This document shows positions 7,573 to 32,000 of a stretch of DNA of 32,000 bases, one piece after another (positions within the stretch are counted from its first letter, which is position 1; the number at the start of each line of letters is the position of its first letter). The notes below the pieces were generated by a model that was not told the origin of the DNA, searched no databases, and saw only the letters and a program-made list of their open reading frames with translations. Made by a program: the position numbers and the translations under genes. The DNA is from Candidatus Saccharimonadota bacterium (GTDB lineage Bacteria; Bacteroidota; Bacteroidia; Cytophagales; Amoebophilaceae), in assembly GCF_964030745.1 (NCBI RefSeq), contig NZ_OZ034918.1, positions 780,001 to 812,000 on the forward strand. Direction: 5' to 3'.

Positions 7573-8016
7573 ATGCAAAGAGTAACTATTGATTATAAAC
7601 ACTTTAATAAAGCAGGTTTTGATAGTAAAACTTGTAGTGTTTTGGTTGTTGGTATACCAAATCAAAAAACATCGACCCAGGCAACCGTATATGATACGGC
7701 ATCCTCTGCACCACTTCGTTATAATCAACGCAGTGCTCCAAAAATTGCAACTTTCACCGTAGATTTCTTACCCCGTATAACGAGCAAAGATTTGTTATCA
7801 AAAGCACATGATTTGGTTAAAGAAGTGTCTGGGGATAAGTATAATCCAGAACCATTTACCCTTTGTGTACATAAAAAAGACGGATCAATAGATACAAAAA
7901 AAACGCTAAATGATGTGATCGTACAAAGCGTAAGCTTGTTTTTGGATAGGAAGAACGAAACTACAGGTGAAAAGGGGTATGTTCGTATACGCTTTACTTT
8001 ACAAGGATTAGTATAG
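7573..8016 (+). CDS. Small CIS-operon protein (147 aa), possible divergent tube/Hcp-like component
   Basis: Same arguments as 7034-7498: co-directional, short gaps, tube-like size. Confidence 0.5.
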   Translation: MQRVTIDYKHFNKAGFDSKTCSVLVVGIPNQKTSTQATVYDTASSAPLRYNQRSAPKIATFTVDFLPRITSKDLLSKAHDLVKEVSGDKYNPEPFTLCVHKKDGSIDTKKTLNDVIVQSVSLFLDRKNETTGEKGYVRIRFTLQGLV

Positions 8017-8063
8017 CGAGATAAAAAGTAATCATATGATGTTTTTAACCTTGTGCTGATTTT

Positions 8064-8513
8064 ATGGCTGATTTTAATTTAGTCCACTCGCATTCTTTTC
8101 AAGTAGAGGTATTGGGTGTAACAGATGGTAGTTCCCCTGAATATTTCTATAAGATAGAAGGGTTAAATAATTCTTTGAATATGGAGCCCTATCTGCCTGG
8201 AGGAGCTAATAGGCCCTATTATAGAGCCAATGCATGTGAGACTACTGATTTAATCTTGACTAGGCCATTAATAGAGGGTAAAACGAAAATGACCGTTTGG
8301 TGCGAGGAGGCCATTGATAAAGGCCTTTTTAAGCTTACACAAGCCCATATTTTGGTCCTTAACAAGGAAGGCAAGATTCTGGCACAGTGGAAGATAGAGG
8401 ATGTCTATCCAAAGGGCATAGCCATTACGCCATTCCAGTTAAATGGTCAAACAGATCTTGGAATAGGGGAAACCATTACGATTGGCTATTCTAGGCTTGT
8501 ACGGACAAAGTAA
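8064..8513 (+). CDS. CIS tail tube protein (T4 gp19 / Afp1-Afp5-like)
   Basis: HSFQVEVLGV...FYKIEGLNNSLNMEPYLPGGANRPYY....DLILTRPL...VWCEEA...ILVLNKEGKILAQWKIEDVYPKGIAITPFQLNG...IGETITIGY follows the conserved tail-tube pattern (F.V.I.G...F..vsGL....e..ey.eGG.n......g.....nl.L.R........W.....). Confidence 0.8.
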   Translation: MADFNLVHSHSFQVEVLGVTDGSSPEYFYKIEGLNNSLNMEPYLPGGANRPYYRANACETTDLILTRPLIEGKTKMTVWCEEAIDKGLFKLTQAHILVLNKEGKILAQWKIEDVYPKGIAITPFQLNGQTDLGIGETITIGYSRLVRTK

Positions 8514-8562
8514 TATCGATAATGCTTCATCTGCTTGGTCTACAAAATTAATTTTATTAATT

Positions 8563-8736
8563 ATGTCTGTTGTAATTAAAGAGCTGCTGATCCAGCTTAA
8601 AGTTTGTGAACCCAATAACCAAGTGGACAATGCTAAAAACTTGCCAAGTAATTTTGCAATGCACCCTACGGAGCAGCAAAAATTGGCGTTAGAACGAGAT
8701 TTTTTACGCCTATTGGAAGACCGGGAAGCAAGGTAA
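8563..8736 (+). CDS. Afp6/Pvc6-like mini-protein (DUF5908-like, 57 aa)
   Basis: The internal ATG at 8563 gives MSVVIKELLIQLKV..., resembling the M-x-I-E-I-K/R-E-L-x-I-K/R-x-x-V start of DUF5908 proteins. Those sit between the tube and tube-initiator genes in CIS loci. The longer ORF from 8482 would overlap the tube gene. Confidence 0.5.
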   Translation: MSVVIKELLIQLKVCEPNNQVDNAKNLPSNFAMHPTEQQKLALERDFLRLLEDREAR

Positions 8737-8757
8737 AATAAACTTCTTTCTATAGTT

Positions 8758-10119
8758 ATGAGTAAAGTTAGTAAACTAGTTATTAAAGCATGTAGTGACA
8801 ATAAATTTTCCTCTTTTACAGGGGAATTTATTACATCTATTAATCCAGAAAATTTAGCGATTAAAAGTGCAGTGTCCTACCATGTGCCTGAAGGAATGTC
8901 GGGTGCTAACTTGCTTAAATACCGTGGTTCTCCTCCAAAACTACTCTCCTTTAGTCTGTTGTTTGATAATACAGGGATTATGCCTGGTAGCAATGCCATT
9001 GCTGTAATGGAACAGGTCAAGCAGTTACAAGATGTTGCCTATAGTGTCCATAAAAAGAATAATGCCCCTAATTACATTCGTGTGATTTGGGGGCAGATTG
9101 ATTTTAAAGGCAGGTTGGTAGCGCTAGACATCGTTTATTCTATGTTTCAAGTAGATGGTACACTGGTTAGAGCAGAGGCGCATATATCTGTATTAGAGGA
9201 GCTGGTTCCTTTAGGTAAGGGAAAAGCTGCTGCAGGTGTAGACAGTAACTATACCAAGCCATCTGGTGCCAATGCAACTGCAAGTCGTAAGGTGGCTGCT
9301 AGTCAAGCTACATCTAACCAGGAGGCTTTTGCCCCAACGCCTAATGGTATGAGTGGCGCCTATAGCGGTGCACCACCTGGTGCCTACGATGGAGGTCCTG
9401 ATGCCATCTATCATGGGTCGAATGGCACTGGGGGAGCGGTTTATAGTGCCAGCACGGGTGCTACACCTTCTGGTGGAGGTCTCTCCACTGTTGGCGCGGC
9501 TCCTTCGAGCAATTATGATGCTGGTTATGACGCTGGTACTGGTCGTTCTGCTAGTTATAGTGCTAACCCTGGTGCTGGTCCTTCTGGTAATAGCTTAAAA
9601 GGCGGTGTTGCGGGTAATGGACCTGGTGGCAGTGGGGGGGGCGTTGGGGGAGGAGGTCATGGGCCGGCTCTAGGGGCAAGTCAATCTGGAAGTGCTGCAA
9701 GTGGTGGATCACTAACTAGTGGTTCAGGGCAGTCTGGTCGGACTACTCCTCCTGCAGAAGTAGGTGGCCATTCCAGTAAAGCTGGCACAAGTGGTAGTAG
9801 TCATGGCGTGGGCAGTGGTGCGGCTGGATCTACAAAAAATAATGTGGCTGCTGGATCAGTGAGTGGTGGAGCTGGAGGGAAAGGTAGTGGTTTGAAAGCG
9901 GGTAGCATTGCAGCCGCTGGTGTAGCGGGTAGTGCTGCTGCAGCTGCAGCAGCTGCAAATGGAGCAGATAGTTTGCGTAAACTAAAGGCAAATGTTAATC
10001 TTATGCAGACAATGAAAAATAAAGTCAGTTTCTGGAGAAGGCTCAAAAATTTTGCTAAAAAAACATGCCCTAAGGCATATGATGCTGGAAAAAAAGTAGT
10101 AAAATCAAGCGGTTTTTAA
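8758..10119 (+). CDS. Afp7-like CIS tube-initiator N-terminal domain fused to a ~250-aa Gly/Ser/Ala low-complexity region and a basic C-terminal tail
   Basis: Residues 1-150 (KLVIKA...F.GEFITSINPENLAIKSAVSY...LLKYRGSPPKLLSFSLLFDNTG......VMEQVKQLQDVAY...NAPNYIRVIWGQIDFKGRLVALDIVYSMFQVDGTLVRAEAHISVLEE) fit the conserved tube-initiator pattern (NPe.l.......y......f.g..p..l...l.fD.......v...v..L........pp.v.f.WG...f.g.l.sl...y..F...G.P.RA.v...l.E). Confidence 0.7.
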   Translation: MSKVSKLVIKACSDNKFSSFTGEFITSINPENLAIKSAVSYHVPEGMSGANLLKYRGSPPKLLSFSLLFDNTGIMPGSNAIAVMEQVKQLQDVAYSVHKKNNAPNYIRVIWGQIDFKGRLVALDIVYSMFQVDGTLVRAEAHISVLEELVPLGKGKAAAGVDSNYTKPSGANATASRKVAASQATSNQEAFAPTPNGMSGAYSGAPPGAYDGGPDAIYHGSNGTGGAVYSASTGATPSGGGLSTVGAAPSSNYDAGYDAGTGRSASYSANPGAGPSGNSLKGGVAGNGPGGSGGGVGGGGHGPALGASQSGSAASGGSLTSGSGQSGRTTPPAEVGGHSSKAGTSGSSHGVGSGAAGSTKNNVAAGSVSGGAGGKGSGLKAGSIAAAGVAGSAAAAAAAANGADSLRKLKANVNLMQTMKNKVSFWRRLKNFAKKTCPKAYDAGKKVVKSSGF

Positions 10120-10520: not shown

Positions 10521-11137
10521 GTATCCATTCACGCCTCTGGCTGGCCGCCTTATCTCCTTCGATAAAAAGTCTGGCCCGATAGTAAATAGCTGAATCGATA
10601 CATTTTTCAGCGGGAAAATCGTGAACTCAGCCCGCAAGCGGGCTTCAAACAGACGATTTTCTAATCCGCTGAAAAAGATATCGCTCAGGTGTTAGTGTTT
10701 TACTAGAGCGCCATTTTTTTATCGAAGGAGACGCGGGGGCTGGTAATGGACTAGCCACTTGTTTTTTCAGCCAAACGTAGCGTATGCGTTTAACGCTATG
10801 TCCATAGTAGAAAAATGCCCCTGTAAAAAGTGGGGAAATAGGCCTCATCCCTTGCAGATGATTAGGAAAAACAGATTCCTTTGAAGCCCGCGCAGCGGGC
10901 GACTTCTGTTTTTCCATCTGTAAGGGGTGAGGTCCCCCAACTTTTTACCGAGGGCTTGATTTTTTGTCCACTTTTTTATCAAGAAAAAAGTGGAATACAA
11001 TTCATTATTAACCAGTGACGTGAATAGATACAAAAAAGGTCTCCCACTTTTTACCGAGGGCTTGATTTTTTGCCCACTTTTTTATCAAGGAAAAAGTGGA
11101 ATACAATTCATTATTAACCAGTGATGTGAATAGATGC
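10521..11137 (+). repeat. MITE-like family 1, copy A: full element with a nested 116-bp palindromic module (10822-10937) and a tandemly duplicated right-end unit (10938-11031, 11041-11137)
   Basis: Terminal inverted repeats GTATCCATTCA (10521) and TGAATAGATAC (11021-11031). Internal long hairpins are centred on CAGCCCGCAAGCGGGCT (10628-10644) and GCCCGCGCAGCGGGC (about 10887-10901). Internal arms GGGCCCCTTATCTCCTTCGAT and ATCGAAGGAGACGCGGGG are mutually complementary. Related copies lie at 14178-16105 and 24535-24783. Confidence 0.75.
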
Positions 11138-15272: not shown

Positions 15273-15683
15273 CTACTTTTTTTTAATGGCTAATTGTATA
15301 GTCATCGATAAGATCTTATTAAGACCTTCTGCTCCCAATCTTTGACGCCAACGAGTTAATGAACTAGGGTGACAAGCTGCCTTAATCTGAAAATAATCAT
15401 AGCCACAAAGGTATTGCCAATAAGGATTTTCTACCCATCTAGCAACTACTTGCTCATCAGAAACTTGGTACATATGACTGATAATGAGTAGGCCTACAAT
15501 CAAACGAATAGGTAAAGGAGGTTGACCGGGTCCATAGCTAAAGCTGCGGTCTAAATCTGATTCTAAGGATTGCCAAGGAATGGAATCAGCTAACTGAAAT
15601 AAGGCGTGTTGGGGATTAAGAATCCCAGATAAGCGTTGCTCAAAAAGCCTACCACAAGAATGATTTATCCTCTTAGATTTCAT
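15273..15683 (-). CDS. IS5-family transposase, N-terminal part (InsH N-terminal/DUF772-like), orfA
   Basis: LFEQRLSGILNPQHALFQLADSIPW...PGQPPLPIRLIVGLLIISHMYQVSDEQVVARWVENPYWQYLCGYDYFQ is the typical IS5-family N-terminal domain. It ends in ...AIKKK-stop inside an A8 run. Confidence 0.8.
   Translation of the reverse strand: MKSKRINHSCGRLFEQRLSGILNPQHALFQLADSIPWQSLESDLDRSFSYGPGQPPLPIRLIVGLLIISHMYQVSDEQVVARWVENPYWQYLCGYDYFQIKAACHPSSLTRWRQRLGAEGLNKILSMTIQLAIKKK
15277..15284 (-). other. A_AAA_AAG slippery site linking transposase orfA and orfB (-1 frameshift site or homopolymer indel)
   Basis: Minus strand reads GCC ATT AAA AAA AAG TAG. A -1 slip on A_AAA_AAG continues as GTA GTC TGC CCA..., giving ...AIKKKVVCPKELEKVISDTTVMEKNIRYPTD. 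Confidence 0.6.
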
Positions 15684-16118
15684 CCCTATTTTGCAAGGTT
15701 TTATACAAAAAAACTCTAAAAATGGTTATTATATATACTATAATATACGGTTTTTTATATTCATAAACAAATAAATATATAATATTTCAGGGCCGACTAA
15801 ATAGCTGAATCGATATCTTTTTCATCGGGAAAATCGTGAACTCAGCCCGCAAGCGGGCTTCAAACAAACGATTTTCTAATCCGATGAAAAATATATCGCT
15901 CAGGTGCTAGTGTTTTACTAGGGCGCCATTTTTCATCGAAGGAGATGCGGGGCTGGTCATGGGTTAGCCATTGTATGCGTTCAGCGCTATGGCCATAGTA
16001 GTAAAATGCCCCAACTTTTTACCGAGGGCTTGATTTTTTGTCCACTTCTTTATCAATAAAAAAGTGAAATACAATTCATTATTAACCAGTGACGTGAATA
16101 GATACAAAAGGTAGATCA

Positions 16119-21161: not shown

Positions 21162-23207
21162 ATGTTAACAATCCCTCTGTTTTTACACACATTTTTTCTT
21201 AGCATATCGCTTCCTGCTATACAGGATAAGCTAGAAGCATTAAAAAATGATCCTACCATTACAGAACTTACTTTTTTTAAAGGGCGTATAAAAGTCGCTG
21301 AAGTTGAGGCCCTTGCGCAGGGGCTAAAGGGTACCCAAATTACAAAGCTTGTGTTTGCTTGCGAGTTTGTAGGAGATGCTGGCGCTGAGGCGCTTGCAGC
21401 AGTGTTGAAAGATACAAAAATTACAACCCTTGAACTATATTGTACGAGCATAGGAGACGCTGGCGCGAAGGCACTGGCAGAAGGATTAAAGGGCTCGCAC
21501 GTTACCACACTTAACCTTGATTCTAATCTCATACATGCTGCTGGCGCTGAGGCGCTTGCAGCAGTGTTGAAAGATACAAAAATTACAACCCTTGACCTGA
21601 GTGGTAATTCTATGGAGGCTGCTGGAGTTAATCTTCTTATACAAGGATTAAAGGGTACGCAAGTTAGAACGCTTGCCTTGAATGGCAATCATATGGGAGA
21701 CGCTGGAGCTAGTTTTCTTGCCCAAGGATTAAAGGATACGCAAATTACAAAGCTTGACCTGAGTATCAATCACATTGGAGAAGTTGGCGTTAGGGCTCTT
21801 GCACAAGGATTGAAGGATACGCAAGTTACAGAGCTTGATCTGAGCCGCAATAAGATAGGAGCCGCTGGCGCGAAGGCACTTGCACAACTGTTGAAAGATA
21901 CCAAAATTACAACCTTGAACCTGAGTCATACCAACATAGGAGATGCTGGTGCTGAGGCACTGGCACAAGGACTGAAAGATACCCAAGTTACAACACTTGA
22001 CCTCAGTAACACCAATGTAGGAGACCTTGGTGCTAAGGCCCTTGCACAAGGACTCCAAGGTACACAGGTTACAACACTTAACCTTGGTAAAACTAAGGTG
22101 GGAGCTGTTGGCGCTAAGGCCCTTGTGCAAGGATTAAAGGATACACAAATTACAGAAGTTGGTATTTATGAATGGCACTATTCTGATGTGCAATCTGCAA
22201 AAGGGTTAGTGATAACACTTGATCTTAGCCATCCTGATGTAGGGCCTGCTAGGGTTCGGGTACTTACAAGAGGGTTAAAAGGTACCCGAATTACAAGGGT
22301 TAATTTGACTGATAATCACATAGGAAATGCTGGCGCTAAAGCCCTTGCGCAAGGATTAAAGGATACTCAAATTATAAAGCTTGACCTTGATAAAAATGGA
22401 ATAGGAGATACTGGTGTTAAGGCCTTGGTGGAGGGATTAAAGGATACGCAAGTTAGGGAATTTATCCTTGCTAATAATTTTATAGGAGCAGCTGGCGCTA
22501 AGGCCCTTGCCAAAGGGTTAAAGGATACTCAAATTATAAAGCTTGACCTTGATGGTAATAGGATAGGAGACCCTGGTGTTAGGGCACTTGCATCAGTGCT
22601 CAAAGATACTCAAATTAGGAAGATTAACCTTCGCCGCAATGTAATAGGAGAGGCTGGAGCTGTGGCACTTGCACAAGTACTAAAGGATATTCCAATTACA
22701 ACACTTGACCTGACTGATAATGTAATAGGAGAGGTTGGCGCTATAGCACTTGCACCAGTGCTCAAGGATACTCAAATTACAGAGCTTAACCTTACTGGCA
22801 ATTATATAGGGGATGCTGGCGCTATAGCACTTGCACCAGTGCTCAAGGATACTCACATTACAGAACTTTGCCTTAGTCACAATGATATAGGGGATACTGG
22901 CGCTATGATACTTGCACCAGCGCTCAAGGATACTCAAATTACAGAGCTTGACCTTGGTAGTAATTATATAGGGAATGCTGGTGCTAGGACGCTTGCACAA
23001 GGATTAAAGCATACGCAGATTACAAAGATTAGTCTTTATAATAATAACATAGGAGTTGTTGGTGCTAGAGCCCTTGCAAAGGGGTTAAAGGAGACGCAAG
23101 TTAGGGAGATTAAGCTTGATAGCAATAATATAGGTGCCGATGCGGCTAAAGTCCTTGCACAAGAATTTAAGAACTGTAAAAGCAAATTGAAATTTAGCAT
23201 ATTTTAG
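21162..23207 (+). CDS. Leucine-rich repeat protein, RNI/NLR-like class, ~24 tandem 27-residue repeats (candidate host-interaction effector)
   Basis: 81-nt periodicity. Repeat consensus TQITxLDLSxNxIGDAGAKALAQGLKD. Two units share a 56-nt identical block (21378-21433 and 21540-21595, 162 nt apart). One degenerate unit lies near 22140-22270. Confidence 0.85.
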   Translation: MLTIPLFLHTFFLSISLPAIQDKLEALKNDPTITELTFFKGRIKVAEVEALAQGLKGTQITKLVFACEFVGDAGAEALAAVLKDTKITTLELYCTSIGDAGAKALAEGLKGSHVTTLNLDSNLIHAAGAEALAAVLKDTKITTLDLSGNSMEAAGVNLLIQGLKGTQVRTLALNGNHMGDAGASFLAQGLKDTQITKLDLSINHIGEVGVRALAQGLKDTQVTELDLSRNKIGAAGAKALAQLLKDTKITTLNLSHTNIGDAGAEALAQGLKDTQVTTLDLSNTNVGDLGAKALAQGLQGTQVTTLNLGKTKVGAVGAKALVQGLKDTQITEVGIYEWHYSDVQSAKGLVITLDLSHPDVGPARVRVLTRGLKGTRITRVNLTDNHIGNAGAKALAQGLKDTQIIKLDLDKNGIGDTGVKALVEGLKDTQVREFILANNFIGAAGAKALAKGLKDTQIIKLDLDGNRIGDPGVRALASVLKDTQIRKINLRRNVIGEAGAVALAQVLKDIPITTLDLTDNVIGEVGAIALAPVLKDTQITELNLTGNYIGDAGAIALAPVLKDTHITELCLSHNDIGDTGAMILAPALKDTQITELDLGSNYIGNAGARTLAQGLKHTQITKISLYNNNIGVVGARALAKGLKETQVREIKLDSNNIGADAAKVLAQEFKNCKSKLKFSIF

Positions 23208-23624
23208 TGTATTATAGGTAGCATTCAGAGTTGAAAATTGCTAAAACTGCAATTAAAATATTGGATAACATCGCCTCCATGCTAGCCACACACAATGTGC
23301 TAGCCCACCTTTGATGCAAGGCCATTCCAATCAGTCGTATCCCCTCTATGGTCAATAGAAAATTTTCTGCATCATAGTCAATAGATTAATTGTACCGTAA
23401 TATAAACAATCATACTACGCTAGTGTAGTGTGTATTGCACATGCATCTTGCTTTTATATGCTTTATTCCATAACTCATAAGAAAGGATAGCTTTATTCGA
23501 CTCTATCTGTTTTTATCTTTTAACTGATATAGCTATGGGTAAGAAATATATAAAAGTGTTGGTGTTAAAGTTGGTATCTATAACTCAGTTTATCCAATGT
23601 ACTATTTTAAGTAGTGAATTGCCT

Positions 23625-24488
23625 ATGGGTAATAGCAATAGTCTGCCACGGCATCAAGATGGCTCAGAGAGAGGGATTAAAGAACAAGCTGAGCAAGGGC
23701 ATCAAGAATATACAAAAGTATGCTGTATTGATTTGTATGCCTTATTTGAGAAAGGGAAAGCTGGTCTAGAAAAATGTATAAAAGGTGATGGGGCCAAGAC
23801 ATCTCCCATCATCATGTCTGGTAATAAACATTCTAATAGTGATTGTTATCATGCGATAGCTCTTTGTAATGAAACAGCGCTTAGTAACGATGTTGTTGTT
23901 CTGGAGGGTCAATATCCTAAAGCAGGATTAGAGCGCATCAGGCAGGGTGTTCATGATCTAGAGGGCTTTAAGTCTCTGATTGCGCATCTTTTAGCGCAAA
24001 ATTATAAGGTGGTTGTTTTTGCTTCTATAGAATACCCTGCTTGCATTCCTCTAGTGTTAGGGCATGTTATTGGCCTTACTAAGGAGCAGTTAAGCAGTAT
24101 ATATATGATATTTAATGGATTTGATGCAAATAATAATAGTGCTGGTAGCCAAGGCAAACATATAGTGTTGGCTGAGCGCGAAATTGGTATAAAAGGCAAA
24201 GGAGGAAATGGTTTGGTAGTATCAAGTTTAGCCCCTAGTCCTGAAAGCTATTTAGGTGCTGCGATTAATTATATATGCATGGATTTAAATGGTAAAAGTC
24301 AATCGAATAATTCAGTTTCAACTAGTTCGTATTGGTCTAGGCTAATAGAATTTGAAATGCAGCGATATAGGCTTATGCAAAAAATGGAAAAAGATAAAGA
24401 GCCTTGTATAAACTTGAATAATCAACTTTGGAGCTTTGCAGAGGAATTAGCGCTTTCTGTTAGTTTTTTTGATAGCGATTCCTCTTAG
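23625..24488 (+). CDS. Hypothetical protein (287 aa from the internal ATG) with N-terminal MGNSNS motif; candidate effector
   Basis: Long ORF with no recognised domain. Start choice is uncertain: the ORF track ATG 23535 adds 30 hydrophobic/basic residues. Confidence 0.55.
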   Translation: MGNSNSLPRHQDGSERGIKEQAEQGHQEYTKVCCIDLYALFEKGKAGLEKCIKGDGAKTSPIIMSGNKHSNSDCYHAIALCNETALSNDVVVLEGQYPKAGLERIRQGVHDLEGFKSLIAHLLAQNYKVVVFASIEYPACIPLVLGHVIGLTKEQLSSIYMIFNGFDANNNSAGSQGKHIVLAEREIGIKGKGGNGLVVSSLAPSPESYLGAAINYICMDLNGKSQSNNSVSTSSYWSRLIEFEMQRYRLMQKMEKDKEPCINLNNQLWSFAEELALSVSFFDSDSS

Positions 24489-24534
24489 CAAACAGGATGT
24501 GTGATCATTTCAACAGAAGCGAGACATTTTTCTT

Positions 24535-24783
24535 GTATCTGTTCAACACTATGGCCATAGTGATAAAATGCCCCTGTAAAAAGTTTCGAAATAGAAGCCA
24601 CCCCTTGCAGATGATTGGGAAAAACAGATTCCTTTGAAGCCCGCGCAGCGGGCGACTTCTGTTTTTCCATCTGTAAGGGGTGGCTTCCGGAACTTTTTGC
24701 CGAGGGCTTGATTTTTTGTCCACTTTTTTATCAAGAAAAAAGTGGAATACAATTCATTATTAACCAGTGACGTGAATAGATAC
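24535..24783 (+). repeat. MITE-like family 1, copy C: short variant (right half) carrying the 116-bp nested palindromic module (24575-24690)
   Basis: Starts GTATCTGTTCAACACTATGGCCATAG and ends TGAATAGATAC (24773-24783). The module has the near-perfect long inverted repeat GAAGCCACCCCTTGCAGATG...CATCTGTAAGGGGTGGCTTC around GCCCGCGCAGCGGGC. Confidence 0.75.
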
Positions 24784-25206
24784 TTTTTCTTTTCCATTTT
24801 AGGTAGGTGCTATCTTGTGGTAAGATAGGCTTACTATCCCAGTACACTTTTTTGTAGCGTTTCTGCTGAAGCTGTACAAAAGTTTTAAGCATAAATACCT
24901 AAAAATCAATAGAATTGAACCTTTTTGTAGTTTATTCTTAAAATAAAAGACAAGTTTTATAGTAAAGAATAAATGCTTACTGCAACGGCTTCAAGATAGC
25001 TATGACAGATTAGCAACCCAAAATTTTTCTAAAATAGATCAAAAGTGCTATATTTGCCCAGTTGGGGAGCTATTACATCATTTTATTGGATCAACCATCT
25101 TTACTTTATTTATAGCAGGTTTACCAGCATGCACCATACCATAGGCCTTCGTAAGTTCCTTATTTGCATTTACCGATCTGGTTTCATTCTTTATTTCGCC
25201 CTAAAT

Positions 25207-26469
25207 ATGGGTTGTGTTTATGGAAATTGTTCTGGAAGCCAGAATAAAAATGAAAAACCCTCTAGTTCAAGTCAAGGATCTCTATTGGCTCCACAAGCTC
25301 CGTTAAAAGGCATGTGTCTCTCTCAAAAAGTCAATAAACAAGCACCAACGGATGTATCAAATATAAATGATTCAGATGATTTTGAACCATCTACAAAAAA
25401 AGTAAATAATTCAGGGCGTGTTGCTAAAGTGCCAGAGGTTCTGCAGGTAATTTTGTTTCTTCATGGACTACATAGACTCTCTTATGATTTTGAGAAAATG
25501 AAGGCAGACCTACAAAAAAAATTTCCAGATGCTAAGATACTGGCTTTAAAATGTGTCAATAAAGACCCTAATAAACAGGGTCACTTGGAGCCTTCTCCTA
25601 CTCTCGAGTTCTCTATCCAGGAGCAGGCTAAACGGGCTTATGAAGAGATTAAAAAAAGAGTTCCCCGCGGTAGCCATATTGTATTAGTAGGCCATAGCCA
25701 AGGGGGGCTACGCGCTTTTACCCTTGCTAAAGAATATGGTAGCCGTTTGGAGAGCGAAGATGAAATCTTTATAGATAAATTGGTTACTATTGGTACCCCT
25801 TGGAAAGGCGCACCAATAATGAACTATATCAAAAATATCAAAAAGTTTAAGGAACAATTTGACAAGATAGAAACAACTTTAAATCGTATAAAGAAAGGGT
25901 ATAGCAAGGCTGTAAGGGGATATTTTTTTAAAGTTATGCCAGGATTCGCAAATTCATGGCCTTGGCTATATGAAAAATTAGTTCCATACATCATGGAAAA
26001 AAAATATCTAGGAGCTGCAAATTTAGATCCAGGTCACTATTTTATTCGTGACTATATTCCATCAGCTCTCAAAGAAATCGATCTGCCTATTACCGCTATT
26101 GCTGGTGTGTTGACCGATTTTTCTAAGCTTTTTGCGCCACTCCCATCTTCTATTCTGTCCCACGAATTGGCTCAACTCAATGCTACTTATGCAGAGCTGA
26201 TTGGAGGCGATGCACAATGTGAGCATGATATGTTACTGCCTGTTGCTACACAACATGCAGAAGGGTTGGCTACGAAAAATTTTAAACGTATCAAAGTATA
26301 TGGTGCCTGTCATGGCAATAAAGTAGGAGTTGCAATAAAACGTAAATTTTCTGAACTCAATAATCAAGAGGTGATAGACAAGGTAGCCGAATCTATAGAA
26401 GAAGTCTTTTACGAGGAAAAAGAAGCGGTAGATATAGCAGCAGCGGGCAGCTTGCCCTCTGCTGCTTAG
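25207..26469 (+). CDS. Alpha/beta-hydrolase lipase/esterase (PGAP1-like / lipase class 2-like), 420 aa from the internal ATG, N-terminal MGCVYGNC motif; candidate effector
   Basis: FLHGL (oxyanion-hole HG), IVLVGHSQGG (nucleophile elbow G-x-S-x-G), LVTIGTPWKGAP, and later candidate acid/His residues (CEHDMLLP, GACHGN). Alternative starts are GTG 25045 and ATG 25129. Confidence 0.7.
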   Translation: MGCVYGNCSGSQNKNEKPSSSSQGSLLAPQAPLKGMCLSQKVNKQAPTDVSNINDSDDFEPSTKKVNNSGRVAKVPEVLQVILFLHGLHRLSYDFEKMKADLQKKFPDAKILALKCVNKDPNKQGHLEPSPTLEFSIQEQAKRAYEEIKKRVPRGSHIVLVGHSQGGLRAFTLAKEYGSRLESEDEIFIDKLVTIGTPWKGAPIMNYIKNIKKFKEQFDKIETTLNRIKKGYSKAVRGYFFKVMPGFANSWPWLYEKLVPYIMEKKYLGAANLDPGHYFIRDYIPSALKEIDLPITAIAGVLTDFSKLFAPLPSSILSHELAQLNATYAELIGGDAQCEHDMLLPVATQHAEGLATKNFKRIKVYGACHGNKVGVAIKRKFSELNNQEVIDKVAESIEEVFYEEKEAVDIAAAGSLPSAA

Positions 26470-26537
26470 TTGTGTGTACTGTTAGGGAACGTAATAAAAA
26501 AATTAGCATCTTGAAAAGTATAAAAAGTAAGGAGGTT

Positions 26538-27935
26538 ATGGTGCCATTAGCGGGGATAGCCAATCATTTAATCTTACGTGAGATCGGTGAGATGGCCGAT
26601 GCGCTTCAACTAGAGACCTATGTAGTAGGGGGATTTGTGCGAGATCTATTGTTGGGGCGTGTTTCTAAAGATATTGATATTGTCTGTGTAGGAGATGGCA
26701 TGGTGCTAGCACAGGCTGTAGCACAAGATAAAGGTGTTTCAGTTAGCCTATTTAAAAGTTTTGGTACCGCCATGTTGCAGTGGAATGGATGGGTGGTGGA
26801 GTTTGTAGGTGCTAGAAAAGAATCTTACTTGTTGGATTCTCGCAATCCCAGTGTATCCACTGGTACACTCTCTGATGATCAAATGCGCCGGGATTTTACC
26901 ATTAATGCAATGGCTATTTCCCTAAATAAAGCAACATATGGTCAGTTATTAGATCCCTTTAACGGACAGCAAGACTTGGTAGATCGGCTGATTAGAACCC
27001 CTTGTGATCCCAGGCAAACCTTTTCCGATGACCCTTTGCGCATCATGCGTGCCATTCGCTTGGCGGCTCAGTTGCATTTTACCATCACACCAGAAACACG
27101 CGCCGCCATGACGGCTGCTGGCGATCGATTGGGTATTGTGGCGCAGGAACGTATCTCCGAAGAGTTACATAAAATGATGGCTACCGATAGGCCTGCTTAT
27201 GGATTTAAACTTTTATTCGATGCCAATCTGCTATCCATTGTACTACCAGAATTGCAAAAGCTTTCAGGGAAAGAACAAATTGGATGCCATTCCCATAAAG
27301 ATAATTTTCTTCATACACTTGCTGTGTTGGACAACCTGGTACAGCATTCTACAAAACTATGGCTTCGTTGGGCAGCTATTTTTCATGATATTGCCAAGCC
27401 GTTGACTAAACAATTTGATCCTGTACATGGTTTTTCTTTTCATGGTCACGAAGATCTGGGCGCTAGAATGTTGCCTAGGCTATTTAAAAGAATGCGATTT
27501 CCCGTCAGCAAGGAGGTACTGGGCTATGTACAAAAATTGGTTAGATTGCATTTACGCCCTATAGCCTTGGCAAAGGAGGTTACGGATACTGCTATACGCC
27601 GACTTTTATATGAGGTTGGAGATGATTTAGAGGATTTGTTTTTGTTGTGTAGGGCTGATATTACCTCTAAAAATGAAATAAAGGTGCAGCAATATTTGTC
27701 TAACCTGGATAAGGTGCATAAGCGGGTGTTGGAAGTAGAGGCACGTGATAAAATTAGAAATTTTCAACCCGTTATTACCGGTGCGGTTATTATGGAAACA
27801 TTTGCACTCAAACCATCTGCTCAGGTAGGCCTTATTAAAGAGGCTGTTAAAGAGGCTATATTAGAGGGTAAAATTAAAAATGAATACCAAGAGGCATTTG
27901 ATTATATGTTGATGGTTGGCAGGCATTTATGTTAA
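26538..27935 (+). CDS. tRNA nucleotidyltransferase (CCA-adding) / poly(A) polymerase family protein with HD domain
   Basis: YVVGGFVRDLLLGRVSKDIDIVCVG (GG-x-VRD...D-x-D nucleotidyltransferase motif), RRDFTINAMA, DPLRIMRAIRLAAQL, and the HD region HSHKDNFLHTL...AAIFHDIAKP. ATG 26538 is preceded by AAGGAGG. The ORF track start is GTG 26472. Confidence 0.85.
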   Translation: MVPLAGIANHLILREIGEMADALQLETYVVGGFVRDLLLGRVSKDIDIVCVGDGMVLAQAVAQDKGVSVSLFKSFGTAMLQWNGWVVEFVGARKESYLLDSRNPSVSTGTLSDDQMRRDFTINAMAISLNKATYGQLLDPFNGQQDLVDRLIRTPCDPRQTFSDDPLRIMRAIRLAAQLHFTITPETRAAMTAAGDRLGIVAQERISEELHKMMATDRPAYGFKLLFDANLLSIVLPELQKLSGKEQIGCHSHKDNFLHTLAVLDNLVQHSTKLWLRWAAIFHDIAKPLTKQFDPVHGFSFHGHEDLGARMLPRLFKRMRFPVSKEVLGYVQKLVRLHLRPIALAKEVTDTAIRRLLYEVGDDLEDLFLLCRADITSKNEIKVQQYLSNLDKVHKRVLEVEARDKIRNFQPVITGAVIMETFALKPSAQVGLIKEAVKEAILEGKIKNEYQEAFDYMLMVGRHLC

Positions 27936-27941
27936 TGCTAT

Positions 27942-28149
27942 GAGACCTCGTTCGGCACCAAAATGGCTATTTCGCAATCGAGTTTCGAAGGAGGCTATTA
28001 GACCTGCACTTGCATAGATCCATTTCCTTATAGATCTTTGTATATTATGGGAGGGTGCTTGAAATTTTCAATCAAACTTCCGGGGTATGGCCTTCTGTGG
28101 AAAAACGCTTAGGCTTTTGGTAGCGGTAGCAGTTTCGCGAAAAGGCTAA
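27942..28149. repeat. Possible degenerate third copy of MITE-like family 2
   Basis: GAGACCTCGTTCGGCA...GGCTATTTCGCAAT resembles the left end and interior start of 922-1058. GTTTCGAAGGAGGCTATTA (about 27982) and GTTTCGCGAAAAGGCTAATG (about 28131) resemble the right end. Confidence 0.25.
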
Positions 28150-28175
28150 TGTTTGGTATAAAACTATTTTAAACT

Positions 28176-28502
28176 ATGGATCAAAACGTTATAGAGATTA
28201 CAGATGTGCAGTTTGATGAGGCTATTGGCCAGCATAAACTTGTTTTGGTAGACTTTTGGGCACCTTGGTGTGGGCCTTGCTTAAAGCTTGCTCCCGTTAT
28301 AGAGCAGATTGCTGCTCTGTATAAAGGGAAAGTATATGTCACTAAGCTGAATATCAGCGAAAATAGCCAAGCACCTTCTAAGTATTTCATTACTACCATA
28401 CCTACTATGTTGTTTTTTCATGAAGGTCAACAAGTAGATCGTTTGGTTGGCAATGTACCGATTAGCCAAATTCAGGCATCCCTAGATAGATATTTACCTT
28501 AA
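28176..28502 (+). CDS. trxA: Thioredoxin
   Basis: LVDFWAPWCGPCLKLAPV with the WCGPC active site. 108 aa, and TIPTMLFF in the expected position. Confidence 0.93.
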   Translation: MDQNVIEITDVQFDEAIGQHKLVLVDFWAPWCGPCLKLAPVIEQIAALYKGKVYVTKLNISENSQAPSKYFITTIPTMLFFHEGQQVDRLVGNVPISQIQASLDRYLP

Positions 28503-28536
28503 TGTAATTGTGTAGCCTCTTTACACTTTTCCACTC

Positions 28537-30306
28537 ATGCAATCCATTACTAAAAATCTAAAAACTTTTATCTGGCACTTTGTAGGCCAATACAAATGGC
28601 ATTTCCTTGCTATGGCTTGTTTGCGCATGTGCTTTGTGTTGGATAATTTAGTAGTTCCTTATGCCTTTAAGGTATTGGTCACACAACTTACAGCATTAGC
28701 CGACGATAGAACAGCTGTTTGGATCAAGCTGGGTTGTCCACTGATCGCTTTATTGGGTGTAATTGTCCTCATAGAGCTTTTTTTTCGTTTATTTGACTAC
28801 ATGAAGCTTAGGACGATTCCTGCTTTTGAGGCAAAAATACGTATCTGGATTGTACAGTATCTGCAAGGTCATTCTTATCAGTTTTTTACAGAGCATTTTT
28901 CTGGTGATTTGGTAAAACGGGTCAACGACTTAACAGATGGCATCAGTCAGATCATGATGATTATCATTTCATCATTTTTGCCTACATTTTGCACCATGTT
29001 GGCGGGTGTCTTTTCTTTTGCCTATATACAGCCTACTTTTGGTGCGATGTTAATGGCTTGGTTGATATTGCATACGACCACTTATCTTGTCTATTCAAAA
29101 AAGTGTCGTCATCGTGTAGCAATGCATGCAGAAAAAGGTAGTCGTTTATCTGGAAGCATTGTAGATGGCTTTACCAATATCTTAAGCATTAAGCTTTTTG
29201 CACGAAAAAATCAAGAAACCACCCATTTATTGGTTCCACAAGCAAGAGAAAAACGTGCACATGAATCAGCTTTAAAGCTTATTATGCAGCTCCATTTTAT
29301 CATTAGTGGTCTTTCTATTGGCTTTATGGGTGTAGGCATGCTTGCTTATATGATCTATTATTGGCAGCTTGGTAAGCTTTCTATTTCTGAAGTCACCTAC
29401 ATTTTTTATGCGGGCAATAATATTTGCAACTTGGTTTGGGTTTCTGTGGCAGAGTTTCCTGATTTTTTTGAAGAAGTTGGCTATTGCCAACAGGCTTTAA
29501 AATTATTACAAAGACAACATGCTGTTTTGGATGCCCCTGATGCGGCTGTGCTTACCTGCCAATCTGCCTCTATTGCCTTTAAAGATGTCTCCTTTGCTTA
29601 TGTGCCCGATAAGCCTATATTTGAAGATCAAAGCATTGATATAGCAGCTGGTGAAAAGGTAGGTTTGGTTGGCTTATCTGGTAGTGGTAAAACTACTTTT
29701 ATTAATCTATTGTTAAGGTTTTTTGATTTGAATAAAGGGGTGATTACCATTGATGGTCAAGATATATCCACTGTTACGCAAGAATCATTGCGTGCGGCTA
29801 TTTCCCTTATACCTCAAGACACGGTGCTTTTCCATGATAGTATTTTAGAAAATATTCGTTATGGTCGCAAAAATGCAACCGATGAGGAAGTTGTTGCCGC
29901 TGCCAAAAAGGCAAACTGTCATAGCTTTATTATGGGTTTGGCACAAGGATATCATACATTGGTGGGTGAAAGAGGATCAAAGCTTTCAGGTGGACAGCGC
30001 CAACGCATTGCTATTGCACGTGCTGTATTAAAAGATGCCCCTATTTTAATATTAGATGAGGCGACTTCTGCATTAGATGCTGTTACTGAAACTGAAATTC
30101 AAGAAAGCCTCTCTAGGATTATGGCTAATAAAACAACTATTGTGATTGCGCATAGATTGGCGGTTTTGGCTGCGATGGATCGGGTGCTGGTATTTAATGG
30201 TGGTAAAATAATCGCAAGTGGATCCCATGAGACGCTTTTAAAGATTAGCCCGCTCTATGCAAATATGTGTAGGCTTCAGTTTGATGGCATGCGTTCGTTA
30301 CAATAG
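28537..30306 (+). CDS. ABC transporter, fused permease/ATP-binding exporter (MsbA/multidrug-like)
   Basis: N-terminal six-helix-type hydrophobic half. Walker A GLSGSGKTT, Q-loop IPQD, signature LSGGQRQRIAIARA, Walker B ILILDEATSALD, H-loop IAHRL. Confidence 0.9.
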   Translation: MQSITKNLKTFIWHFVGQYKWHFLAMACLRMCFVLDNLVVPYAFKVLVTQLTALADDRTAVWIKLGCPLIALLGVIVLIELFFRLFDYMKLRTIPAFEAKIRIWIVQYLQGHSYQFFTEHFSGDLVKRVNDLTDGISQIMMIIISSFLPTFCTMLAGVFSFAYIQPTFGAMLMAWLILHTTTYLVYSKKCRHRVAMHAEKGSRLSGSIVDGFTNILSIKLFARKNQETTHLLVPQAREKRAHESALKLIMQLHFIISGLSIGFMGVGMLAYMIYYWQLGKLSISEVTYIFYAGNNICNLVWVSVAEFPDFFEEVGYCQQALKLLQRQHAVLDAPDAAVLTCQSASIAFKDVSFAYVPDKPIFEDQSIDIAAGEKVGLVGLSGSGKTTFINLLLRFFDLNKGVITIDGQDISTVTQESLRAAISLIPQDTVLFHDSILENIRYGRKNATDEEVVAAAKKANCHSFIMGLAQGYHTLVGERGSKLSGGQRQRIAIARAVLKDAPILILDEATSALDAVTETEIQESLSRIMANKTTIVIAHRLAVLAAMDRVLVFNGGKIIASGSHETLLKISPLYANMCRLQFDGMRSLQ

Positions 30307-30309
30307 GGC

Positions 30310-31488
30310 ATGGTGATGCATTTTTTGCTGGGTCAAAAAGCATGGTTTGCATACCTAAGGTTATTGCTTCTGGGGCTTGTTTCTTTCTTGCCCCTTTTTG
30401 CATATAGTAAACCATCAGCTATTTGTGATGGTAGCGAGCCACCTCCCTTAGCCAGCAACTATTCAGCTAAGCTGCTGTGCACCATAAATGGCCAGAGCTT
30501 TATAGACAATACAGAGTATTTCAATAAAATTATGGAAGGGGAGACCTTGTTTGGGTTTCATTTTCTGCCTGGTTTAACCTTTTTAATGGCTGAAGAGATA
30601 GGGCTTAACTTGGGGCTCATCTGGGAGAAACACTTTGGCCATATGCAACCATGGTTTGGTATTAGGCCTGCGCTATCCATCTATTATAGCCACAAACAAA
30701 CTAGTTGTGTATTGGGTATTTTTGATCTACAAGACTATCCTCCTACCTTATTAGAGCCCCTCTATGTAAGACGTAAGCCTTTTATGGAGGGATTCCATTT
30801 TAAACTAGCAAAACATAAAAGCTATCTATCAGGTTGGCTCAATTGGCGCACGTTACTAGCTAAGCAAGATAACCAACCAGAAACTTTTACATTGTATTTG
30901 GATGGAGCATGGTGCCAGGACCATTCAAGCCAAAAGATAAGCTGTACCATACCCTTTCAACTAGCTGTTTATCATTTAGGTGGCCAGGGCATTTCGGTAA
31001 AAGATTATAGTCTATGGTGTGGTGCGGGTGGTCTTTCCTTGCGTTTGCCCAATAGCTTTAGCGGCCCCATTTACGGGGCTAGTTATCTATTATTCAATAA
31101 ATATGTAAAAGAAATAGATCGACCTTTTAAAGCAGGGTGGGGGCAACTGCATACGATCGACTGGCGCATGAATTTTCTGGGCGTATCACTGAGTTATTGG
31201 TATGGATATCATTTTTCTTCTGAAAATATGGGCCATCTGCTCTATCAATCTATGCGTATAGAAAATCATAAGGCGATCTACTATGAACCTATCAGAAGTC
31301 TTTTATTTTTATCTATATATAGGGATTGGGTGCTCCAATCAGGTATAACGCTTCAAGTTGTTTTGAGGCCCTATTACGATTTTAGCAACCGACTGTTAGA
31401 GTATGGTTTTTCATGTAAATTGGTTTATTCTAGAAAGGTTCAGCTCACTACTTTGCGTTATGTAGATGTTCCGATGAGCAAAGCGTAG
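30310..31488 (+). CDS. Hypothetical exported protein (392 aa), possibly outer-membrane; 3 nt downstream of the ABC exporter gene
   Basis: N-terminal hydrophobic segment LRLLLLGLVSFLPLFAYS is signal-peptide-like. The body is rich in aromatic residues and Gly. No recognised motif. Confidence 0.5.
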   Translation: MVMHFLLGQKAWFAYLRLLLLGLVSFLPLFAYSKPSAICDGSEPPPLASNYSAKLLCTINGQSFIDNTEYFNKIMEGETLFGFHFLPGLTFLMAEEIGLNLGLIWEKHFGHMQPWFGIRPALSIYYSHKQTSCVLGIFDLQDYPPTLLEPLYVRRKPFMEGFHFKLAKHKSYLSGWLNWRTLLAKQDNQPETFTLYLDGAWCQDHSSQKISCTIPFQLAVYHLGGQGISVKDYSLWCGAGGLSLRLPNSFSGPIYGASYLLFNKYVKEIDRPFKAGWGQLHTIDWRMNFLGVSLSYWYGYHFSSENMGHLLYQSMRIENHKAIYYEPIRSLLFLSIYRDWVLQSGITLQVVLRPYYDFSNRLLEYGFSCKLVYSRKVQLTTLRYVDVPMSKA

Positions 31489-31506
31489 GGCTAACCAATG
31501 TATCTT

Positions 31507-32000
31507 ATGGCTGAGTTATTGATCTATCGTGCTTCTGCAGGTTCTGGCAAAACCCATATATTGGTAACCCGTTATATTCAATGGGCCTTACGTTATCCAG
31601 ATGCTTTTAAGCATATCTTGGCGGTAACCTTTACCAATCGTGCAACCCAAGAAATGAAACAGCGGATGCTGGACTATTTACACAGCCTATCCATTGGGGA
31701 AGCAACTGATTTACAAGAAACGCTATGCCAAGCAGGATGGACACCTGAGCAACTACAGCTGCGCAGCAAGGAAGTACTATCCATGATGGTCTATCAGTAT
31801 GGCGATTTGTCAGTAGTCACCATCGATAGTTTCTTTTATAAGATCATTCAATCCTTTTCTAAAGAGATGGGATTACAGCACCATTTTGCTATTGAAATGG
31901 ATGAACCACTCGCTTTGCAAGAAACCGTAGATACATTGACTACCTTGGATGATCCACTGCTTCAACAGTGGATGGTGGATTTTGCACTTACCAAACTATT
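31507..32000 (+). CDS. UvrD/REP (AddA/RecB-like) superfamily-1 helicase, N-terminal 164 aa; 3' end outside window
   Basis: The ATG 31507 frame is open to the window end. MAELLIYRASAGSGKTHILVTRY (Walker A), ILAVTFTNRATQEMKQR (motif Ia), VVTIDSFFYKII. Confidence 0.8.
   Translation, partial: MAELLIYRASAGSGKTHILVTRYIQWALRYPDAFKHILAVTFTNRATQEMKQRMLDYLHSLSIGEATDLQETLCQAGWTPEQLQLRSKEVLSMMVYQYGDLSVVTIDSFFYKIIQSFSKEMGLQHHFAIEMDEPLALQETVDTLTTLDDPLLQQWMVDFALTKL

Follow-up and report, generated by a model that had tools for sequence, protein, structure and literature searches.

An MGC motif in a lipase-like hydrolase of a Cardinium endosymbiont probably belongs to the end of a lipoprotein signal peptide

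Gene model and genomic neighbourhood

The DNA analysed here, hereafter called the window, is a 32,000-nucleotide stretch from the Cardinium endosymbiont of Philonthus spinipes. It carries a gene for a lipase-like hydrolase immediately upstream of cca (Table 1). The first-pass annotation had described the mechanical reading frame 25045-26469 as a lipase translated from ATG 25207, with MGCVYGNCSGSQNKNEKPSSSSQGS (MGCVYGNC) at its N-terminus, a low-complexity linker and the motifs FLHGL, GHSQGG and TIGTPWKGAP; all of these elements are present in the sequence. The loci of relatives were found by an alignment-based scan of genome contigs, while a scan of contigs with the single protein found no relative. 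N-termini and starts were compared across 10 Cardinium loci, and stop and indel statistics across 9; residue conservation was read from an alignment of 30 family sequences, and lipoboxes were searched in 28 family N-termini and 12 distant paralogues.

Table 1. Features of the hydrolase locus, with nucleotide positions in the window and residue numbers of the 446-aa precursor
Feature	Position	Strand	Remarks
Conserved promoter-like block	25024..25056	+	TTTC (-33-like) 25026-25029, 19-nt spacer, TATATTTG 25049-25056
Mechanical ORF	GTG 25045 to TAG 26469	+	474 aa
Most likely true start, Met1 of 446-aa precursor	25129..25131	+	ATG at homologous position in 10/10 Cardinium loci
Predicted signal peptide, residues 1-28, MHHTIGLRKFLICIYRSGFILYFALNMG	25129..25212	+	Basic n-region (R8, K9, R16), hydrophobic h-region
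Lipobox-like L-N-M-G-C, residues 25-29	25201..25215	+	Cys29 (25213-25215), predicted lipidated +1 residue
Internal Met27, lipobox -2	25207..25209	+	Start in first-pass annotation and in public annotation (P0001, 420 aa)
Disordered low-complexity tether, residues 30-93	25216..25407	+	pLDDT <50 for residues 28-93
Recombinant (mosaic) tract, ~700 bp	25390..26080	+	Spans catalytic Ser and lid; identity drop vs L002
Alpha/beta-hydrolase (lipase-like) domain, residues 94-433	25408..26427	+	pLDDT mostly >90
His112-Gly113, HG oxyanion-hole motif in FLHGL	25462..25467	+	Invariant in 30 sequences
Ser190, nucleophile in G-H-S-Q-G-G	25696..25698	+	H189, S190, Q191, G192 and G193 invariant in 30 sequences
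Asp367, predicted triad acid (E-H-D-M-L-L-P)	26227..26229	+	H366, D367 and M368 invariant in 30 sequences
His395, predicted triad base (C-H-G-N-K)	26311..26313	+	H395 and G396 invariant in 30 sequences
C-terminal Ala-Ala, then TAG stop	26461..26469	+	-AA end in 20/30 family members and 3/12 distant paralogues
cca, CCA tRNA nucleotidyltransferase	26472..27935	+	Pfam and NCBIfam; directly downstream of hydrolase

The adjacency of hydrolase and cca is found in 11 of 13 loci, covering Cardinium and two Amoebophilaceae MAGs. The real start of cca is probably ATG 26538, and the two genes are probably co-transcribed. Upstream, the hydrolase had been grouped with an LRR gene and the MGNSNS reading frame (ORF317) into an effector islet (21162-26469). 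This grouping does not survive the 13-locus comparison: no other hydrolase locus contains the LRR gene or ORF317, whereas the synteny with cca is conserved. ORF317 has one relative, 99% identical, and an IS-associated dispersed repeat (24720-24772) lies between it and the hydrolase. Judged by this synteny, the hydrolase is outside the strain-specific LRR/orphan insertion.

A mosaic tract is apparent in comparison with the locus L002. Its nucleotide identity to L002 is 54-84%, as against 98-100% over the rest of 24757-32000; at the protein level, a column-based comparison gives 90% for the linker, 57% for the centre and 98% for the C-terminal part. The in-genome paralogue P0042 was considered as donor of the patch by gene conversion and rejected as far too divergent (profile E 6.5e-39).

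Hydrolase domain and tether

Weak Pfam matches, the invariant triad and HG motif, and the AF2 model together support an alpha/beta-hydrolase of lipase type, in agreement with the first-pass annotation. Asp367 is assigned as triad acid from the Ser-Asp-His order of the fold. The AF2 model (mean pLDDT 81.8) places a helical insertion or lid at about residues 229-316, and the preceding tether, widely variable in length and sequence among orthologues, holds a second, semi-conserved cysteine, Cys34 (25228-25230; C-x4-C). A family assignment by HMM search had been proposed with DUF676 and PGAP1 among the candidates. DUF676 is the sole Pfam family above threshold (21.3 bits for a cut-off of 20.3), with Palm_thioest (25.9 vs 26.8), PGAP1 (18.7 vs 24.3), Abhydrolase_1, Lipase_3 and LCAT all under theirs; no NCBIfam model reaches its cut-off for the hydrolase. 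The serine-esterase families DUF676, Palm_thioest and PGAP1 give the best sequence-profile matches, which lie in the N-terminal half of the domain and reach from the HG motif to the strand that follows the nucleophile. Since these matches span only about 130 residues, and Palm_thioest and PGAP1 score below their cut-offs, they are best read as superfamily-level similarity and not as membership.

The structural search points to family I lipases. Foldseek found 375 matches in the PDB with E<=1e-3, and lipases of families I.5 and I.2 stand at the top of the list (E 1e-9 to 1e-7). The best structural matches are 5ce5, 2w22, 2es4_B, 1tah and 4lip (E 1e-9 to 4e-7), from the group of Burkholderia/Pseudomonas LipA (I.1/I.2) and Geobacillus T1/L1 (I.5) lipases, of which 1qge, 1tah and 1cvl also appear as weak matches in the profile search. 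These enzymes and the window protein have in common the G-H-S-Q-G-G elbow, an HG oxyanion motif, a triad in Ser-Asp-His order and a helical lid, but the sequences are no more than 11-15% identical and the TM-scores, at 0.37-0.58, are modest. The lid insertion also differs, and the window protein has a predicted lipoprotein leader and a tether of about 65 residues in place of a type II or type I secretion signal. By sequence profile, the best solved structure is 7x2p, a 252-aa "putative lipase" (E 3.3e-6) of which the literature search found no trace. The aligned part takes in the nucleophile elbow and the T-I-G-T-P-W-x-G strand, although it covers only about 85 residues, and the elbow of 7x2p reads HSRGG where the window protein has HSQGG.

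Translation start and coding status of the leader

The promoter-like block upstream of the gene overlaps GTG 25045, which argues against a start at that codon. The first-pass annotation had noted TATATTTG, a Bacteroidota-type -7 box, and the lack of a TTTG at -33, and both are indeed seen: no TTTG stands at -33, and a TTTC is found instead, 19 nt upstream of the -7 box. Because TAnnTTTG by itself is about as common in the window as chance predicts (20 matches on the + strand, 19 expected), solely its conservation counts as evidence; the block TTTnTAAAATAGATCAAAAGTnCTATATTT[GA] is kept in 7 of the 9 orthologous loci, within poorly conserved flanking upstream DNA. A scan for sigma-70-type promoters gave nothing relevant, the sigma-70 consensus being ill-suited to Bacteroidota. 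The first ATG downstream of the block is the one at 25129, which supports a start there. The predicted transcription start lies at about 25062-25066.

Comparison with relatives also indicates that translation probably begins at ATG 25129, and neither at 25207 nor at 25045. The frame is closed by a stop only 4 codons ahead of the conserved ATG in L005 and L008, so an earlier start is impossible in these two loci. Most loci have no Met at the position equivalent to 25207; hence, their proteins must start upstream of it. Orthologues such as P0004 (N-terminus MHHTIGLRRDLIAICRSGWIFYLVLGIAC) are annotated from the Met equivalent to 25129. The first 54 residues of the GTG frame had been taken for translated spacer. 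This description fits residues 1-28, which overlap the promoter-like block and contain in-frame stops in orthologues, but not residues 29-54 (nt 25129-25206), a conserved coding leader, MHHTIGLRKFLICIYRSGFILYFALN, that nearly matches the P0004 N-terminus. On the other hand, the NCBI annotation (PGAP) starts P0001 and P0007 (locus L004) at MGC, which counts against the 25129 start. If ATG 25129 is used, as seems probable, the public annotation is 26 codons short and the true start lies 78 bases upstream.

The leader has the same layout in all 10 Cardinium loci, where the conserved ATG opens 28 residues ending in x-[GAS]-Cys. Across 9 loci, the 29 codons from ATG to Cys contain no in-frame stop, whereas the two alternative frames hold 25 and 15 stops and the upstream 87 nt hold 11 in the same frame. 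The leader is also free of indels in these 9 loci, in contrast to the linker directly behind the Cys, the length of which varies greatly. Over these 29 codons pN/pS is about 0.4-2.2, which is uninformative and gives no sign of purifying selection on amino acids, and no third-position periodicity was found in the leader; the coding case therefore rests on stop and indel statistics and on motif conservation. In the window protein, the h-region GFILYFAL follows R8, K9 and R16, and AF2 models a helix at residues 9-27 of the precursor. Two features of this N-terminus count against a lipoprotein: no Lys or Arg is found in the first 7 precursor residues, and the maximal 9-residue Kyte-Doolittle mean of the h-region (1.89) is the lowest in the orthologue set (1.9-3.6).

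Were the public annotation correct, the product would be a cytoplasmic 420-aa hydrolase starting at Met27, devoid of acylation, and the 78 nt before that codon would serve as a 5' UTR or a regulatory segment. We regard this as quite improbable: a UTR is not expected to retain, in 10 loci, an ATG, basic residues, a hydrophobic core and a frame that stays open and free of frameshifting indels, even if the 62-87% nucleotide identity of the leader without codon periodicity, a pN/pS near 1 and the twofold choice of the 25207-type start by PGAP would agree with it. The nucleotide conservation of the leader could still reflect, in part, a 5' UTR element.

Lipobox, cysteine anchoring and competing readings

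Cys29 is aligned in all Cardinium orthologues. In contrast, the Met before Gly-Cys is encoded by ATG in only 4 of the 10 loci (the window, L002, L001 and L004), the others having ATA or ATT (Ile), GTG or GTT (Val), or a Thr codon, and the Gly is replaced by Ala or Ser in several orthologues. MGC as such is thus not a conserved motif. The substitutions suggest that it is a look-alike, which arose in one sub-clade when Ile or Val at lipobox position -2 changed to Met.

The PROSITE lipobox expression {DERK}(6)-[LIVMFWSTAG](2)-[LIVMFYSTAGCQ]-[AGS]-C, with Cys at position 15-35, is fully matched by 17 of the 28 orthologue N-termini and by 8 of the 12 distant paralogues. Canonical lipoboxes (IIGC, VIGC, LAAC, LIGC) occur in most orthologues and paralogues, and the paralogues without a match carry SPI-like leaders, so that the whole family appears to be exported. 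The window sequence, with its Cys at position 29, fails the expression at Asn -3 only, a residue also present in P0017; its atypical lipobox (Asn -3, Met -2) counts against the lipoprotein reading.

The same departure from consensus would fit a protein exported without lipidation, either held in the inner membrane by an uncleaved signal anchor or released by SPI as a soluble periplasmic or secreted hydrolase. Such a product is unlikely: every Cardinium orthologue strictly keeps the Cys immediately behind a small residue where the h-region ends, an AxA site is not evident ahead of this Cys, and most orthologues and paralogues have canonical lipoboxes. The points that speak for it, besides Asn -3 and Met -2 in the window, are the SPI-type leaders of the paralogues P0028 and P0038 (by sequence) and CAHE_0777 (by SignalP 6), and the single helix modelled by AF2 at residues 9-27.

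We therefore favour as the likely product a 446-aa Sec/SPII lipoprotein, translated from ATG 25129, anchored through Cys29 and carrying a tethered hydrolase resembling family I lipases. In this lipoprotein, residues 1-28 would form a Sec-type signal peptide ending in the lipobox L-N-M-G-C. Lgt would add diacylglycerol to Cys29, LspA would cut the Gly28/Cys29 bond, and Lnt would N-acylate the new N-terminus; the Lol system may finally carry the product to the outer membrane. The mature form would be a membrane-tethered serine hydrolase, its domain carried by the disordered linker of about 65 residues and its catalysis relying on the HG oxyanion motif, the Ser190/Asp367/His395 triad and the helical lid. 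Lipid or acyl esters in the symbiont envelope or at its surface would be its substrates.

The required machinery is annotated in the sister strain Cardinium cEper1, whose supplementary gene table lists lgt (CAHE_0749), two lspA genes (CAHE_0224/0225), lnt (CAHE_0177) and lolD (CAHE_0310). In the main texts on Cardinium, our literature search found no mention of lspA or lgt, and the genome paper (Penz 2012) does not mention lipoproteins. SignalP 6 assigns several Cardinium proteins to Sec/SPII and the paralogue CAHE_0777 to Sec/SPI (bioRxiv 10.64898/2026.06.05.730497). The proteome tables of cEper1 yielded this paralogue only, and no direct orthologue of the hydrolase. The predicted Sec/SPII lipoproteins CAHE_0757, CAHE_0406, CAHE_p0043, CAHE_p0044 and CAHE_0028 belong to the same genus and have the same leader type as the window hydrolase, but are unrelated to it in sequence and domains, none being a hydrolase of its family. 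CAHE_0028 has a second Cys shortly after the lipobox Cys, as does the window hydrolase. For CAHE_p0044, the GenBank start hid an SPII peptide opened by an in-frame ATG 27 aa upstream (bioRxiv 10.64898/2026.06.05.730497), the same annotation error as proposed here.

The first-pass annotation had interpreted MGC differently. SH4-type dual acylation motifs, such as MGCVQCKDK at the N-terminus of the Src-family kinase Fyn, share with the window protein the M-G-C-V string and a nearby second Cys. Among injected effectors, dual acylation at an MGC-type N-terminus is established in type III effectors of plant pathogens such as AvrRpm1. In this model, the hydrolase starts at 25207, is delivered to the host (a contractile injection system would be one possible route) and acts there as a membrane lipase after myristoylation and palmitoylation of Gly2-Cys3 by host enzymes. 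We judge this highly improbable. SH4 motifs act only at the extreme N-terminus, and the window MGC is preceded by a conserved leader of 26 residues: all 4 loci with MGC keep the upstream ATG and the open leader, and in other orthologues the Met is changed to Ile, Val or Thr while the Cys and the leader persist. A start at 25129, which buries MGC and had itself been named as the case that would overturn the proposal, is thus the one favoured by the comparative evidence. The presence of MGC, NCBI's choice of this start for P0001 and P0007, and a contractile injection system cluster within the window are all in keeping with host acylation. The PROSITE myristoylation pattern G-{EDRKHPFYW}-x(2)-[STAGCN]-{P} is matched by the window (GCVYGN) and by P0005 but not by P0007, and its specificity is low, as about one third of random sequences after G-C would pass (an estimate from residue frequencies). 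In addition, the gene belongs to the syntenic core and lies outside the accessory insertion, and Sec-type leaders throughout the family, paralogues included, are at odds with cytoplasmic loading into an injection system. Of the earlier proposal, the part that finds support is a probable lipid anchor through the same Cys that had been singled out; the host-acylation mechanism and the effector role are not supported.

Within the Met27 sub-clade (the window, L002, L001 and L004), both starts might be used, giving a lipoprotein from 25129 and a leaderless cytosolic isoform from 25207 whose Gly2-Cys3 N-terminus could be host-acylated if the contractile injection system of the window delivered it. 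A single Cys would then receive its lipid from the bacterium in the lipoprotein and from the host in the cytosolic isoform. We consider this extremely improbable, and nothing was found in support of internal initiation at 25207.

Under the favoured lipoprotein reading, what resembles a eukaryotic acylation motif in this endosymbiont probably marks the end of a signal peptide of a bacterial lipoprotein, and a late start in the annotation of at least two Cardinium genomes probably hides an export signal. Cardinium lipoproteins are now proposed as cytoplasmic-incompatibility effectors, so correct starts matter for effector mining in the genus. In Amoebophilaceae, the family would represent a lipase-like hydrolase that is membrane-tethered, conserved and fast-evolving, and whose catalytic and lid region is recombinant between near-identical strains. 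It is a reasonable, if unproven, candidate for envelope lipid turnover or for interaction with host lipids.

Elsewhere in the window, the reading frame 1423-2832 also starts with a lipobox-like leader, MEHKKVLLLWLLILCSC, as judged by eye, a further point in favour of the lipoprotein reading.

Translation start and promoter of the hydrolase

The lipase-like hydrolase of the window appears to be an ordinary exported bacterial enzyme, and its start has probably been miscalled. The first-pass annotation described its ORF accurately: the mechanical frame runs from GTG 25045 to TAG 26469, TATATTTG lies at 25049-25056, ATG 25207 yields MGCVYGNCSGSQNK, and a low-complexity stretch as well as the FLHGL, GHSQGG and TIGTPWKGAP motifs are all present. 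The product is 100% identical to the NCBI protein P0001 (420 aa) of 'Cardinium endosymbiont of Philonthus spinipes', encoded on a 1.09-Mb contig. Hence, the window is DNA of an insect endosymbiont of the Bacteroidota (Amoebophilaceae). The annotated start of P0001 is the Met of MGC, as chosen at first pass.

Many Cardinium orthologues in the homologue list start about 26 residues ahead of the Cys, with a common leader, M-[RHY]-[YH]-x-I-G-[LI]-x-K-x-L-I-x-I-x-R-S-x-L-...-L-x-x-[GAS]-C. In the window, ATG 25129 opens the same leader (MHHTIGLRKFLICIYRSGFILYFALNMGC), a near match to that of the homologue P0004 (MHHTIGLRRDLIAICRSGWIFYLVLGIAC). The upstream DNA was read in the other three 'MGC' orthologues and in seven further Cardinium loci. 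All four MGC loci (the window, L002, L001 and L004 from Oedothorax) have an open frame and the conserved ATG, while a stop four codons 5' of this ATG makes an earlier start impossible in L005 and L008. Across nine loci, the 29 codons from ATG to Cys contain neither in-frame stops nor indels, as compared to 25 and 15 stops in the other two frames and 11 in-frame stops in the 87 nt upstream of the ATG. Unlike the leader, the linker following the Cys varies strongly in both its length and its sequence (30-sequence alignment). Only four loci have ATG as the 'M' codon of MGC; Ile (ATA/ATT), Val (GTG/GTT) or Thr is encoded at the others, and every locus compared keeps the Cys codon.

In the Philonthus and Oedothorax Cardinium genomes, the NCBI models (P0001, window 25207; P0007, L004) take the internal MGC Met as their start and so lack the conserved leader of 26 residues. 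Both are likely to be start-site errors of a systematic kind, which conceal lipoprotein signals. A direct precedent is reported for CAHE_p0044, in which an ATG located 27 aa ahead of the GenBank start, and overlooked there, supplies an SPII peptide (bioRxiv 10.64898/2026.06.05.730497).

GTG 25045 falls inside a conserved promoter-like block (see table) located 73 nt 5' of ATG 25129, and no other ATG was found between the two in the window. TAnnTTTG by itself occurs at chance frequency, so that only its conservation carries weight. On that ground the -7 box proposed earlier is probably real, but it would serve the start at 25129.

Coordinates of features in the window
Feature	Position	Strand	Remarks
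ORF with lipobox-like leader	1423-2832		GC 0.47; AT skew -0.48
Contractile injection system cluster (AFP-like/T6SS-iv), part	3978-10119		CIS_tube protein at 8758-10119
Dispersed repeat, ~106 bp	10930-11135, 16042-16094, 24700-24783		4 copies (2 in tandem)
IS5-family transposase fragment	15273-15683		Near one dispersed-repeat copy (16042)
LRR_6 (RNI-type) repeat protein, 681 aa	21162-23207		Directly after 5S rRNA gene; strain-specific
ORF317 with internal MGNSNS	23535-24488		Orphan; one 99%-identical match
Promoter-like block, TTTC-19 nt-TATATTT[GA]	25024-25056	+	Conserved in 7/9 loci
MsbA-like ABC exporter and LpxZ-family/lipid-A-deacylase-like protein	28537-31488		Downstream of hydrolase-cca-trx block

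Lipoprotein-like leader and the host acylation reading

The leader is organised like a lipoprotein signal peptide, with basic residues, a short hydrophobic core and a small residue before the Cys. The PROSITE lipobox regex, with Cys at position 15-35, is matched by 17 of 28 orthologue N-termini and by 8/12 proteins from a set of remoter paralogues gathered by exhaustive profile search, including P0042 (MFQSNITLYITIFFFSIIGC), a second hydrolase of the window's genome. Paralogues lacking the Cys carry SPI-like leaders, and the C. hertigii cEper1 paralogue CAHE_0777 is Sec/SPI according to SignalP 6. The whole family thus appears to be exported.

The window lipobox, L-N-M-G-C, deviates from the regex at Asn -3 only, an Asn shared with the homologue P0017, and no orthologue in the set has a less hydrophobic h-region. 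Given this atypical lipobox and weak h-region, we retain export without lipidation as an alternative, albeit an unlikely one, to lipidation at Cys29. The annotation of cEper1, a different genome from that of the window, includes lgt, two lspA, lnt and lolD (supplementary gene table), and several abundant Sec/SPII lipoproteins are reported in Cardinium (bioRxiv 10.64898/2026.06.05.730497).

Five residues past the lipobox Cys stands another, semi-conserved Cys (C-x4-C, window 25213-25230; CVYGNC, CSSKNC, CEGGRC), with C-x-C or C-x3-C in paralogues and C-DS-C in the Cardinium lipoprotein CAHE_0028. Such a closely following Cys is unusual among lipoproteins.

MGC had been taken for a signal for myristoylation and palmitoylation by the host. 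The PROSITE myristoylation pattern, which is permissive, does match the window sequence, yet P0007 does not fit it. Moreover, the motif must lie at the extreme N-terminus, and MGC is preceded by a conserved translated leader; the host-acylated effector is therefore without basis. Internal initiation at 25207, giving a minor leaderless isoform, is highly improbable. The case amounts to an annotation correction and a caution about eukaryotic motifs read in raw ORFs.

Genomic neighbourhood

The hydrolase lies directly 5' of cca (CCA tRNA nucleotidyltransferase) in 11/13 loci, two Amoebophilaceae MAGs included, and evolves much faster (51-57% identity versus 78-86% for cca). The LRR_6 protein and ORF317 are missing from all other loci among the 13 related loci compared. 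With the hydrolase-cca pair kept, the supposed three-gene effector islet resolves into a strain-specific insertion beside a core gene. A dispersed-repeat copy (24720-24772) stands between ORF317 and the hydrolase promoter; others lie at 10968, 11074 and 16042.

This repeat, probably an IS end or MITE, contains a hairpin (CCACTTTTTT-ATCAAG-AAAAAAGTGG), and the L002 contig terminates within it. The LRR_6 protein is made of 81-bp (27-aa) tandem units, and long antisense ORFs there were dismissed as repeat artefacts. Pfam and NCBIfam searches with ORF317 gave no match. Its internal MGNSNS satisfies the myristoylation pattern, the rival start being the first ATG (MGKKYIKV); there is no TAnnTTTG upstream, and its single near-identical relative leaves no homologues to choose between the two. 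GTG 26472 is probably too early for cca: orthologue alignments begin at residue 10 at the earliest, and the L002 gene call corresponds to ATG 26538, preceded by AGGAGG (26530-26535).

Enzyme domain, divergent patch and other features

Regarding the family, DUF676 is just over its Pfam cut-off; PGAP1, also suggested at first pass, is under its own, as are Palm_thioest, Abhydrolase_1, LCAT and Lipase_3. These matches are at superfamily level only, and an NCBIfam search returned no meaningful match. H112-G113, G-H-S190-Q-G-G, H-D367-M and C-H395-G are invariant in the 30-sequence alignment and, judging by sequence, are the canonical HG oxyanion motif and Ser-Asp-His triad. An AF2 model derived from this alignment (mean pLDDT 81.8; residues 94-433 mostly above 90) shows a helix at residues 9-27 and disorder at 28-93. 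Foldseek places Geobacillus (family I.5) and Burkholderia (family I.2) lipases at the top of its PDB matches, and the top sequence-profile match is 7x2p, a 'putative lipase'. 'Lipase-like' labels the predicted fold and motifs, as opposed to a proven activity.

Over 24757-32000, the window is 98-100% identical in nucleotides to L002 outside a ~700-bp patch inside the hydrolase gene (~25390-26080; approximately 634-1320 in L002), where identity is 54-84%. The patch takes in the catalytic Ser and the lid. Protein identity is 90% in the linker, 57% in the centre and 98% in the C-terminal part, and either centre is just as distant from its counterpart as it is from the remaining Cardinium orthologues. 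The patch resembles a tract acquired by recombination from a lineage outside the sampled data, in which no donor occurs; L002 being a Logan contig, it may instead be an assembly chimera between co-infecting strains.

A conserved C-terminal -[PSL]-A-A (window 26461-26466; alignment columns 624-626) occurs in 20/30 aligned family members and a terminal AA in 3/12 distant paralogues (AAAA, AEAA, EEAA); this ending resembles C-terminal signals recognised by tail-specific proteases and ClpX.

Elsewhere, the injection-system cluster encodes Pvc16_N, sheath, T4 gp19-like and CIS tube proteins; the long Gly/Ser/Ala-rich C-terminal extension of the CIS_tube protein accounts for a local GC of 0.51. The ORF with the lipobox-like leader (MEHKKVLLLWLLILCSC, judged by eye) is extremely Ala-rich and of low complexity beyond it, without a Pfam match, and its TGCTGC-type repeats leave the remaining frames, and the opposite strand, open over long stretches. 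Finally, the MsbA-like exporter and LpxZ-family protein indicate that the symbiont retains an outer-membrane lipid A pathway.
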